DNA of 64,000 nt from Sphingobacteriia bacterium (GCA_011390785.1 JAABRR010000006.1:95493-159492); one strand, 5' to 3'. Shown: positions 50,961 through 60,730, counted from the first letter of the stretch. Numbers and translations are program-made. The notes: generated by a model not told the origin, from the letters alone.

Positions 50961-52301
50961 TTATACGTAACCCTGTGCCATCATTGCATCTGCCACTTTC
51001 ACAAAGCCTCCAATATTGGCTCCTTTTACATAATTAACAAAATCACCTTCCCTACCATAATCTACACATGTTTTGTGAATATTGATCATGATGTTATGCA
51101 ATCTCTCATCCACCTCTTTTCGGGTCCAGGAGAGCCGAAGTGCGTTTTGGCTCATCTCCAGGCCAGAGGTTGCAACACCACCGGCATTGGCAGCTTTACC
51201 CGGTCCATAAAGAATTTTGTATTGAAGATAGAGTTCAACAGCATCGGGGGTAGAGGGCATGTTGGCCCCTTCACTTACACAGATACATCCGTTATCAATC
51301 AACGTTTGGGCATCCTTACCATTTATTTCATTCTCGGTAGCACAAGGTAGTGCAATATCACACTTCTCAGCCCATGGCCGGCTGGTACCTTCTACATACT
51401 TACAACCATATCGATCAGCATATTCGCTAATACGGCCGCGTTTTATATTCTTCAGCTCCATTACCCACGCCAGTTTCTCACTGTCAATTCCATCAGCATC
51501 AAAAATATAACCACTGGAATCGGAAAGGGTAACTACTTTACCACCCAGTTCAATAACCTTTTCTGCAGCAAATTGCGCCACATTGCCCGATCCGCTGATG
51601 GCTACCACCTTATTTTTAAATCCTTCGTTTATGGTTTCCAACATTTCCTGGGCAAAATAAACACAACCATAACCTGTAGCTTCAGGGCGAATCAAACTTC
51701 CACCGTAAACGAGCCCTTTACCAGTGAGTACACCAGTAAACTCATTGCGGATGCGTTTATACTGGCCAAACAAGTAACCAATTTCACGGCCACCCACACC
51801 AATATCTCCGGCAGGCACGTCTGTATCAGGGCCAATATGCCTGCACAACTCAGTCATGAAACTCTGGCAAAACCTCATTACTTCGTTATCTGATTTCCCT
51901 TTTGGGTCGAAATCACTACCACCCTTACCCCCTCCCATAGGCAAAGTAGTAAGGCTGTTTTTAAAAACCTGCTCAAAAGCCAGAAACTTTAAAATACCCA
52001 GATTTACAGTAGGGTGAAAACGTAATCCGCCTTTGTAAGGCCCTATGGCACTGTTCATCTCTATCCGAAAACCACGATTTATCTGCACATCACCCCGGTC
52101 ATCAATCCAGGGAATACGAAACATGATTACACGCTCGGGTTCAATCATTCGCTCAAAAACTTTTGCTGCCTTGTACTTGGGATTTTCATCCAGAAAGGGT
52201 AAAATACTTTCAGCCACTTCTTCTACTGCCTGATGAAATTCTGCTTCTGCAGGATTCTTGGCAATTACATAATCCATAAATTTTTTCAGTTGTGCATTCA
52301 T
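50961..52301 (-). CDS. gdhA: Hexameric glutamate dehydrogenase, NADP-type dinucleotide fingerprint
   Basis: 446-aa ORF with GGLRFHP and the catalytic Lys box [16 protein letters not shown]. The fingerprint [14 protein letters not shown]...VTLSDSSG matches the E. coli NADP-GDH pattern ([10 protein letters not shown]...SDSSG). Confidence 0.92.
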
Positions 52302-52522
52302 AATGTTGGATTTTAAGTTTTGGAATGGGTTGTATTAGATGCAATTTTACCTTTTTTCATCAGGGAAAAATCATTTTTGAAAAAAGATTTATTTTTTCCT
52401 TTTTTCTTGTTTATTCCAAAAATTAAATGTATAAAGAAATATATGTCAAAAAAGGCTTCCGGATAGCTTTAAATTACTATTTTTAGCCTTGTTTAGAAAA
52501 TAAAATTGCCAAAACACAAACT

Positions 52523-59252: not shown

Positions 59253-59392
59253 AAACGAGATTATGAAAATGCAAAAATATTTTAATATTTTGCTTTGCCA
59301 ATCAGTAAAATAAGTCTAATTTCGCCCTGAATATTAAAACATATTTTATATCAATCACCCTTTTATTAAACACATTTAAAACTAATTTACCT

Positions 59393-60730
59393 ATGAATTT
59401 GGATAAGATAATGGCCGATCTGGAAAAGAAAAATCCTGGTCAACCTGAATTCCTTCAGGCAGTAAAAGAAGTTCTCGAAACCATTGAAGATGTGGTAAAA
59501 GAAAACCCACGCTACGAGGCTGCAAACATTATTGAAAGAATCATTGAACCCGACAGGGTTATTAAGTTTAAAGTACAATGGATGGACGACAAAGGCCAGG
59601 TGCAGGTAAACCGTGGCTATCGTGTTCAGTTTAACAACGCTATTGGCCCTTACAAGGGTGGACTAAGGTTTCACCCCAGTGTAACAGAGGGTGGCCTTAA
59701 GTTTTTGGGCTTTGAACAGATTTTCAAAAACAGCCTTACAACACTGCCCATGGGCGGCGCAAAAGGAGGAAGCGATTTCGACCCCAAAGGAAAATCGAAT
59801 GCCGAGATCATGCGTTTCTGCCAGGCTTTTATGTCTGAACTATACAAATACATAGGCCCCGATAAAGATATTCCTGCAGGCGATATTGGTGTAGGAGGAC
59901 GCGAAATTGGCTATCTGTTTGGTATGTACAAAAAACTTGTTGGCGAGCACCATGGTGTGCTTACCGGAAAAGGTCGCGGTTGGGGCGGTAGCCTTATCCG
60001 CCCGGAAGCTACAGGATTTGGTAATGTTTTCTTTGCCGAAGAAATGCTTAAAACCCGCGGTGAAACCCTGGAAGGAAAAATCATTGCCGTTTCAGGTTTC
60101 GGTAATGTTTCATGGGGTTCAATCATTAAAGCCACACAACTGGGTGCAAAGGTTGTGACCATCAGCGGACCCGATGGTTATGTTTATGATCCTGATGGAA
60201 TTTCAGGAGAGAAAATAGACTACCTGCTCGAATTACGCGCATCAAACCAGGATATCGTAAAACCTTATACTTTTGAATTCCCCACAGCACAATTCTTTGA
60301 AGGAAAACGCCCATGGGAAGTGAAATGCGATGTAGCTCTTCCATGTGCCATTCAAAATGAGCTGAACGCAGAAGATGCACAAAAACTTGTTGACAATGGT
60401 GTAATATGTATTTCTGAAGGTGCCAATATGCCTTGTACCCCCGAAGCCATGGAAATTTTCCTGAATAATAAAGTGCTCTATGCCCCGGGAAAAGCATCTA
60501 ATGCAGGCGGTGTTGCTACTTCAGGACTGGAGCAAACACAAAATGCGATGAAACTTAACTGGATCGCCCCCGAAGTAGAAGAAAAACTTCACCAGATCAT
60601 GGTCAATATTCATGATGCTTGTGTTAAATACGGAAAAGATGGAGATGGCTATGTTAATTACGTAAAAGGAGCCAACGTAGCTGGCTTTATCAAAGTAGCC
60701 GATGCTATGATAGAGCAGGGAGTTGTATAA
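59393..60730 (+). CDS. gdhA: Hexameric glutamate dehydrogenase, second paralogue with NAD-type (Clostridium symbiosum-like, gdhB-like) fingerprint
   Basis: 445-aa ORF with GGLRFHP and [16 protein letters not shown]. The fingerprint VSGFGNVSWGSIIK...VTISGPDGYVYDPDG resembles the NAD-specific C. symbiosum GDH pattern (GFGNVAWG...SGPDGYIYDPEG). Identity to the first paralogue is roughly 55-65 percent by eye. Confidence 0.9.
   Translation: MNLDKIMADLEKKNPGQPEFLQAVKEVLETIEDVVKENPRYEAANIIERIIEPDRVIKFKVQWMDDKGQVQVNRGYRVQFNNAIGPYKGGLRFHPSVTEGGLKFLGFEQIFKNSLTTLPMGGAKGGSDFDPKGKSNAEIMRFCQAFMSELYKYIGPDKDIPAGDIGVGGREIGYLFGMYKKLVGEHHGVLTGKGRGWGGSLIRPEATGFGNVFFAEEMLKTRGETLEGKIIAVSGFGNVSWGSIIKATQLGAKVVTISGPDGYVYDPDGISGEKIDYLLELRASNQDIVKPYTFEFPTAQFFEGKRPWEVKCDVALPCAIQNELNAEDAQKLVDNGVICISEGANMPCTPEAMEIFLNNKVLYAPGKASNAGGVATSGLEQTQNAMKLNWIAPEVEEKLHQIMVNIHDACVKYGKDGDGYVNYVKGANVAGFIKVADAMIEQGVV

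Follow-up and report, generated by a model that had tools for sequence, protein, structure and literature searches.

Tandem receiver/ATP-grasp enzymes encoded beside glutamate dehydrogenase genes are candidate controllers of the glutamate/2-oxoglutarate node in Bacteroidota

Results

Two glutamate dehydrogenase genes flank the tandem paralogs P1 and P2

Glutamate dehydrogenase (GDH) is the main ammonia/glutamate/2-oxoglutarate route in Bacteroidales, the dominant Gram-negatives of the human gut. We analyzed a 64-kb stretch of DNA from a Sphingobacteriia bacterium (GCA_011390785.1, JAABRR010000006.1:95493-159492; hereafter the window) in which two gdh genes flank a tandem pair of genes, P1 and P2, that encode large proteins with receiver-like and ATP-grasp domains. 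The locus reads gdh(-) on the minus strand, then P1, P2 and gdh(+) on the plus strand, and then a hairpin (Table 1). An initial annotation of this DNA had placed the four open reading frames (ORFs) at coordinates with which our ORF table agrees to the base, and the three intergenic spacers have the lengths it had given (221, 25 and 140 nt) when read from the sequence. It had also proposed that P1 and P2 are paralogs. The two proteins are indeed paralogs, with 38% identity over 979 residues, and P1 is longer by about 230 residues at its N-terminus.

Table 1. Features of the gdh-P1-P2-gdh locus, in window coordinates
Feature	Coordinates	Strand	Description
gdh(-)	50961..52301	-	Family-I hexameric glutamate dehydrogenase, 446 aa; NADP-type motif GSGNVAQF...SDSSG; PRK09414, 4fcc
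gdh(-)/P1 divergent spacer	52302..52522		221 bp; partly conserved A/T-rich blocks; no confident promoter assignment
P1	52523..56194	+	1223 aa; N-terminal extension, tandem receiver-like domains, DUF5752-like linker, PPDK_N, new C-terminal domain
P1 N-terminal extension	52523..53227	+	Residues 1-235, specific to P1; coiled-coil, then possibly a GAF-like sensor region
P1 PPDK_N ATP-grasp domain	54500..55597	+	Residues 660-1025; Pfam E 5e-40
P2	56220..59252	+	1010 aa; P1 architecture minus the N-terminal extension; 25-nt gap after the P1 stop
P2 REC1	56331..56765	+	Residues 38-182; pseudo-receiver; invariant Met105 at the phospho-acceptor position
P2 REC2	56769..57221	+	Residues 184-334; receiver with complete acidic pocket; D263 codon 57006-57008
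P2 DUF5752-like helical linker	57222..57509	+	Residues 335-430; invariant H373; E 1e-6
P2 PPDK_N ATP-grasp domain	57555..58706	+	Residues 446-829; GGKARGLAF, AVRSSSLLEDS, IQE, EIEF, LQIRP; Pfam E 4e-37
P2 C-terminal domain	58683..59219	+	Residues 822-1000; invariant GPGRWG and SxGxHFF; H932 codon 59013-59015
Conserved block, P2-gdh(+) spacer	59290..59329	+	40 nt; promoter candidate: TTTG (59294-59297), N19, TAATTTCG (59317-59324)
gdh(+)	59393..60730	+	Family-I hexameric glutamate dehydrogenase, 445 aa; NAD-type motif GFGNVSWG...SGPDG
Intrinsic-terminator-like hairpin	60756..60794		A-run on one side, T-run on the other (bidirectional)

P1 and P2 have the architecture of response regulators

Pfam recognizes a PPDK_N ATP-grasp domain in both P1 and P2, with nearly the full model covered. 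Matches to Response_reg and DUF5752 fell below threshold, the former at 28.5 bits against a gathering threshold of 30.2 bits. For P2, AlphaFold2 gave a confident model (pLDDT 82, pTM 0.71) from an input of 85 P1- and P2-type sequences, and the best matches of this model in the PDB were rifampin phosphotransferase (5hv1, E 2e-11) and HpeI (9goj, E 3.5e-9). Further matches were to PleD, a REC-REC-output protein (Foldseek E 1e-7), to PPDK (1dik, E 1.5e-5) and to single receiver domains, the latter with TM scores of 0.73-0.79. The reading of P1 and P2 as receiver plus ATP-grasp proteins, made in the initial annotation, is upheld.

The two receivers of P2 differ at the site of phosphorylation. In REC2, residues E193/D194, D263, S297 and K316 are invariant, by which we mean here and below invariant across the 85 sequences of both paralog types. 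D263 aligns with CheY D57 and S297 with T87 in hhalign, with a weak score on a single template; the domain also holds an insertion of about 25 residues. In REC1, the residue aligned with CheY D57 by the same method is Met105, and the full set of pocket residues is not retained. Because methionine occupies the phospho-acceptor position, we classify REC1 as a pseudo-receiver. The extension of P1 bears a weak resemblance to GAF (GAF domain 4g3v, E 0.16 only), and one P1 relative (L005) begins with sequence that appears PAS-like by eye only.

Pfam found no DNA-binding domain in P1 or P2, which favors a non-transcriptional output. Like PleD (REC-REC-GGDEF) and PorX (REC-PglZ), P1 and P2 place receivers before an enzymatic domain, and like PleD they pair a degenerate with a functional-looking receiver, although in P1 and P2 the pseudo-receiver comes first. 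The output of PleD and PorX is GGDEF or PglZ, whereas that of P1 and P2 is an ATP-grasp and a new domain. Judged by domain architecture, P1 and P2 are response regulators with a novel enzymatic output.

Three longer homologs (P0241, P0253 and P0261; 1,523-1,654 aa) have two copies each of the C-terminal domain, and P0241 also has two PPDK_N stretches. Such layouts would fit a fused pair of P-type units and joint action of P1 and P2.

The ATP-grasp site is conserved and is joined to a new C-terminal domain in place of dikinase domains

In the ATP-grasp of P2, GGK(450)ARG, R(541)SSSLLED, Q614, E788-x-E790 and Q809 are invariant and R811 is nearly so. We take their counterparts in the ATP site of PPDK to be K22, R92, D321/E323 and Q335/R337. 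On the NCBIfam equivalog models of PEP synthase, PigC, RedH and rifampin phosphotransferase, the proteins stayed far under every cutoff (600-1350 bits), reaching at most about 56 bits, or 4-10% of the required score.

The N-terminal ATP-grasp PF01326 is common to P1/P2 and to PPS, PPDK, rifampin phosphotransferase, PigC and RedH. In contrast to these enzymes, P1 and P2 carry tandem receivers, the DUF5752-like linker and a C-terminal domain that has no PDB match. The swivel domain PF00391 (GGxTSH) gave no Pfam match in P1 or P2, even when the C-terminus was searched alone at E 10, and neither the substrate domain PF02896 (PEP/pyruvate TIM barrel) nor the rifampin-binding domain was found in them by Pfam. 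A search for the phosphohistidine domain with Pfam, PDB profiles and Foldseek was also negative; Foldseek on the model of the C-terminal domain returned no swivel domain of PPDK, EI or PPS. P1 and P2 thus lack two defining features of the dikinase family, the swivel and the substrate domain, and are not complete dikinases. The name 'PEP/pyruvate-binding domain-containing protein' labels the nucleotide-binding domain and is no evidence of PEP binding.

The C-terminal domain (180 residues), modeled alone, gave a pLDDT of 89 and a pTM of 0.88. The model had no significant structural neighbor in the PDB by Foldseek (best E 0.13, TM 0.3), and a profile search found no relative among PDB sequences. 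Clustering at 50% identity gave 2,236 clusters that contain the domain, 579 of them at E 1e-30 or better, and it came after PPDK_N in all eight long representatives examined. The model places its invariant histidine, H932, in a flexible loop where a helix begins; this residue is a candidate catalytic residue by conservation only. We considered whether the domain is a diverged swivel domain, as H932 lies within a strand-loop-His-helix-strand pattern reminiscent of GGxTSH; the idea was rejected because no Pfam, PDB profile or Foldseek match was obtained.

HpeI (9goj) resembles P1 and P2 in having an ATP-grasp and no swivel histidine in the same chain. Unlike the multidomain P1 and P2, it is a single-domain protein of 330 residues, and it presumably works with a separate histidine-bearing subunit. 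No histidine-bearing partner gene of this kind is visible next to P1 and P2.

gdh genes are strongly enriched next to P homologs

If P1 and P2 are connected with GDH, their homologs should be found next to gdh genes in other genomes, as the initial annotation had proposed to examine. We surveyed 80 loci of P homologs from a genome scan, with flanks of up to 10 kb (1.39 Mb in all; some flanks end at contig ends), and located gdh by tblastn. The loci derive from Bacteroidales, Lentimicrobiaceae, Rikenellaceae, Marinilabiliales (Saccharicrinis), Flavobacteriales (Lutibacter), Bacteroides, Parabacteroides, Paludibacter and others, and extra contexts beyond the 80 were taken from exact-protein look-ups. 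The flanks contained 39 gdh genes. Genomes of 3-6 Mb carry one or two gdh genes, and fewer than one would be expected in 1.39 Mb. At least one gdh was present in 30 of the 80 loci and was directly adjacent (within 600 bp of P) in 25. In 54 loci the flanks reached 2 kb or more on each side, and of these 17 had a direct gdh neighbor and 21 had gdh within 4 kb. The enrichment is strong and holds across arrangements, lineages and GDH classes. Since gdh lies next to P relatives far more often than chance predicts, P1 and P2 are strong, testable candidates for controllers of the carbon/nitrogen step.

At least six different arrangements of gdh (G) and P genes were observed. The layout of the window, G< P1> P2> G>, was identical in two loci. 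G< P1> P2> and P1> P2> G> occurred in three loci each, P2> G> and G< P2> in seven each, and G< P2> G< in three. G> P2> G> was also found three times (L064 and L065 from Lutibacter, plus L060), and G> G< P2> and P2> G> P2> once each. At L057 (383-8106) the layout of the window is mirrored, with one NAD-type GDH between two P2-type paralogs (P> GDH> P>).

The initial annotation had envisaged a choice between NADP- and NAD-linked GDH. Among the surveyed loci, GDHs with the NAD-type motif (GFGNVxWG...SGPDG) outnumbered NADP-type enzymes 26 to 9. By these motifs an NAD-type GDH is the constant partner of P homologs. The other GDH may be NADP-type or a large enzyme of about 1,050 residues, and the proposed choice is not a general rule.

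Linkage to gdh recurs in Flavobacteriales, Marinilabiliales, Bacteroidales and contigs labeled Lentisphaerota. Close relatives of the window keep the four-gene unit GDH< P1> P2> GDH> between unrelated flanks. A Bacteroidota contig of about 1 Mb (L095) has the order GDH< P1> P2> Crp-like< GDH>, and an abundant gut Phocaeicola has malate dehydrogenase (MDH) ... GDH< P> ... GDH< malic enzyme. The most informative contexts are on Lentisphaerota/Victivallales-labeled contigs, where a P2 homolog 74-81% identical to P2 of the window is divergent from the large GDH, which belongs to a different class (PF05088 + PF00208), and a hexameric GDH is usually on the other side of P. A GAF-PtsP-like gene adjoins in two of these contigs.

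A second enzyme that probably acts on 2-oxoglutarate is also linked to P. Genes for a korAB-type two-subunit 2-oxoacid:acceptor oxidoreductase (TIGR03710, 660 bits) were present in 19 of the 80 loci, and in about 12 they lay directly upstream of P on the same strand. In total, 45 of the 80 loci have gdh or korAB with P.

The P family is large, with at least thousands of clusters at 90% identity in each of three sequence searches, and it occurs in abundant Phocaeicola, Parabacteroides and Bacteroides. BT1971/BT1972 were considered as the P homologs of B. thetaiotaomicron; this was rejected at least for BT1971, which is a catalase.

Several other genes were noted in these neighborhoods. At L095 (11082-12212), the gene between P2 and the downstream GDH encodes a regulator with cNMP-binding and HTH_Crp domains. 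The GAF-PtsP-type gene at L093/L094 (2166-4514), by the large GDH and P, encodes GAF, PEP-utilisers_N, PEP-utilizers and PEP-utilizers_C domains, the architecture of Enzyme I-Ntr; by domain content this puts a sensor of the nitrogen phosphotransferase system in the P/GDH neighborhood. A GltD/NuoG-type fusion of about 1,200 residues stands beside P in L014, L015 and L037, and NuoE-like (2Fe-2S thioredoxin-like) and NuoF-like genes occur by GDH or P in several loci of the group L080 (14633-16954), L014, L015, L037, L052 and L078. The Nuo-like and GltD/NuoG-type genes are a possible NAD(P)H/ferredoxin-linked redox module of the glutamate/2-oxoglutarate node. The NADP-type gdh upstream of P1 in L005 (4640-5886) is split into ORFs of 194 and 204 aa, either as a pseudogene or by an assembly frameshift.

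The flanking GDHs differ in their predicted cofactor

Both flanking GDHs (about 445 aa) match Pfam PF02812 and PF00208 with E values of 1e-51 to 1e-90, above the curated cutoffs, and belong to the family-I hexameric enzymes. They are 61% identical to each other. For the gdh(-) product, PRK09414, the NCBIfam model of NADP-specific GDH, gave 761 bits, and the top PDB match was the NADP-GDH of E. coli at 623 bits. The gdh(+) product scored above the cutoff of PRK14030, and its top PDB match was the NAD-GDH of Clostridium symbiosum at 570 bits, with the E. coli enzyme only 2 bits lower. We take GSGNVAQ..SDSSG to be an NADP-type and GFGNVSWG..SGPDG an NAD-type motif, going by the enzymes of E. coli and C. 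symbiosum, respectively. Of the two isozymes named in the initial annotation, these sequence comparisons support the NADP-type assignment of gdh(-) well, while the NAD-type assignment of gdh(+) is plausible and, with a 2-bit margin, short of proof. Bacteroides GdhA is described as an NAD(P)H-dependent enzyme.

Probable co-transcription of P1 and P2, and a probable separate promoter for gdh(+)

The short gap between P1 and P2 (25 nt in the window and 14-19 nt in relatives) makes their co-transcription almost certain. The initial annotation put the first strong terminator after gdh(+), where we find the hairpin formed by AAAAAAAGCTGTCCC (60756-60770), a 9-nt loop and GGGGCAGCTTTTTTT (60780-60794). 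Its stem has eight G/C-rich pairs with one G.U wobble and is extended by A/T pairs, after which comes the T-run. Our terminator scan missed this hairpin since its loop limit was 8 nt; it returned no stronger terminator-like site between P1 and the end of gdh(+).

A single transcription unit running through gdh(+), as the initial annotation implied, is doubtful. The 40-nt block in the 140-nt spacer before gdh(+) is identical in the window and in the three relatives L085, L086 and L087, and the remaining spacer diverges. Promoters of Bacteroidota follow a -33/-7 pattern, which this block fits, and another locus (L080) has a perfect TACATTTG at the matching place of its P2-gdh spacer. This conserved promoter-like sequence suggests that gdh(+) probably has its own promoter; read-through from P2 into gdh(+) is possible. 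The candidate was derived from cross-species conservation. Scans for sigma-70 and TAnnTTTG motifs showed enrichment of neither and were uninformative on their own.

Past the P2 stop and upstream of the promoter-like block lies a near-perfect A/T-rich palindrome, GCAAAAATATT-TT-AATATTTTGC (59268-59300), which could act as a weak terminator or an operator and is common to the window and L085 only. For RNA elements in the spacers, Rfam gave only a chance snoRNA match (E 0.11), and PADLOC gave no match to an anti-phage defense system.

Beyond the terminator, a gene for a pyrophosphate (PPi)-dependent phosphoenolpyruvate carboxykinase (PEPCK) runs off the end of the window (61257-64000, plus strand), with the promoter-type motif TACCTTTG before it at 61033-61040. 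Its product matches PDB 6k31 (E 3e-261) and 8e1u (E 2.5e-256); Pfam gave no match. The earlier call of a PEPCK-like gene is therefore correct. Its position beside the gdh cluster is shared by L085 and not by L086 or L087, and because the flanks around the kept four-gene unit are unrelated, the adjacency is not conserved. Elsewhere in the window, positions 20001-22000 have a GC content of 0.30, compared with about 0.40 for the rest.

Discussion

P1 and P2 combine conserved receiver and ATP-grasp sites in one chain, and the genes of their family are linked to two classes of GDH and to korAB. We propose that they are response-regulator-type enzymes that form a tandem pair of ancient origin, probably work together as a hetero-oligomer and would be dedicated to the glutamate/2-oxoglutarate node. 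The input would come from the pseudo-receiver and the phosphorylatable receiver (Asp263 in P2), to which P1 would add its sensor-like extension. The output would be the PPS/PPDK-type ATP-grasp, probably catalytically competent, fused to the family-specific C-terminal domain. In this proposal the receiver signal, together with a ligand on P1, would switch a reaction that depends on ATP and adjusts GDH activity after translation. Most likely the NAD-type GDH would be phosphorylated covalently, or else modified or activated by ATP in some other way. Through the same node the other GDH isozyme would be co-ordinated as well, and so, possibly, would the 2-oxoacid:ferredoxin oxidoreductase. As the role of P1 and P2 we tentatively favor a post-translational control of GDH, above all of the NAD-type enzyme, that is gated by a signal and requires ATP. 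A broader reading is possible and rather more doubtful: the whole P family would be the catalytic core of an unrecognized system of post-translational GDH control, which would also co-ordinate the 2-oxoglutarate node, 2-oxoacid:ferredoxin oxidoreductase included, in Bacteroidota and Lentisphaerota. In this reading a PPS-type ATP-grasp that has no swivel histidine and a C-terminal domain of novel fold would modify or activate GDH in response to a phosphorelay signal.

Several of our data weigh against this proposal. To our knowledge, every characterized PPDK_N enzyme passes phosphate through a swivel histidine domain, which the P1 and P2 chains lack. In addition, gdh(+) seems to be served by a promoter of its own. 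Neither gdh nor korAB was found in the readable flanks of 35 of the 80 loci (about 44%). Other contexts among the 35 include the GltD/NuoG-type oxidoreductase fusion with NuoE/NuoF-type genes nearby and, in some Bacteroides, a hybrid kinase. In five Bacteroides loci (L058, L061, L066, L068 and L070), P is divergent from a hybrid histidine kinase/response regulator of about 1,300 residues and has no GDH within 10 kb. This kinase may be a candidate cognate kinase for P or may mark another functional context. In one Victivallales locus, fetched separately, a P-P pair lies beside an MTHFR/Hdr-like cluster. Finally, the surveyed loci are phylogenetically related, and the raw counts therefore overstate the number of independent events.

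P1 and P2 could instead be metabolic enzymes and not modifiers of proteins. Their kinase, dikinase or ligase activity would depend on ATP, be regulated by the receivers and be directed at a small molecule of glutamate/2-oxoglutarate metabolism, with the adjacency to gdh and korAB explained by a shared pathway. All characterized PPDK_N enzymes known to us (PPS, PPDK, rifampin phosphotransferase, PigC/RedH) have small molecules as substrates, rifampin phosphotransferase is the closest match by fold, and the neighbors GDH, korAB, malic enzyme, MDH and PPi-PEPCK are catabolic and anabolic enzymes of one node. However, no recognizable substrate-binding domain of the PF02896 or rifampin-binding type, and no phosphohistidine domain, was found in P1 or P2. 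The regulatory N-terminus of 330-560 residues with its tandem receivers, and the ancient duplication that gave P1 and P2, look like signaling, and from what is known of the pathway we are aware of no missing ATP-dependent step between succinyl-CoA, 2-oxoglutarate and glutamate. We consider a small-molecule enzyme unlikely on balance, though well worth keeping in mind.

A further explanation is that P1 and P2 are a self-contained sensor or phosphorelay, in which the ATP-grasp reads ATP/AMP or autophosphorylates H932 or H373 and the phosphate passes to the protein's own Asp263. Such a relay would stand in for a histidine kinase, and its output would be protein-protein contact with several targets, at the node or elsewhere. 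It would fit the invariance of both H932 and H373, the intact receiver pocket in both paralogs and the occurrence of P in contexts other than GDH. It would also fit the lack of an evident kinase: a crude regular-expression search found no histidine kinase H-box motif in any ORF of more than 200 codons in the window, and the called genes of most fetched loci include no adjacent kinase. Orphan receivers are common, however, so a missing kinase says little. The C-terminal domain does not have the PEP-utilizers swivel fold, and no precedent is known for phosphotransfer from an ATP-grasp to a receiver. These points make a self-contained relay improbable in our judgment.

Inherited synteny with no functional coupling has very little chance of being correct: many loci do come from metagenome-assembled genomes of related Bacteroidales and the 35 loci that have neither gdh nor korAB would suit it, but the arrangements differ in orientation and intervening genes, the flanks vary around a conserved four-gene core, and the linkage recurs both in separate lineages (the Lentisphaerota-labeled contigs among them) and with the distantly related large-GDH class.

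Signal-gated control of GDH by P1 and P2 would have a parallel in Actinobacteria, where PknG-GarA/OdhI controls the 2-oxoglutarate node through a phosphorylation-dependent switch of NAD-GDH and of a 2-oxoglutarate-consuming enzyme. P, similarly, neighbors both GDH and korAB. The likeness is one of logic only. PknG-GarA/OdhI consists of a Ser/Thr kinase and an FHA protein, whereas P, which is unrelated, consists of receiver and ATP-grasp domains. We found no paper on the P family in the literature searched, in agreement with the initial annotation, to which no characterized member of this architecture was known.

Older work may bear on the control of Bacteroides GDH. Judging by its title, a 1996 paper by Baggio and Morrison reported trans-acting gene(s) that affect GdhA activity in B. 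thetaiotaomicron. Reversible inactivation of the B. fragilis GDH was reportedly described by Yamamoto in 1987. If the P family is the core of a GDH control system, its proteins would be the missing factor behind these old reports of trans-acting or reversible control. Confirmation of the link to GDH would establish a new output class for two-component signaling and a new chemistry for the PPDK_N ATP-grasp, together with a new domain fold. P1 and P2 thus offer a genetically testable candidate for the controller of the carbon-nitrogen step in gut and sediment bacteria.

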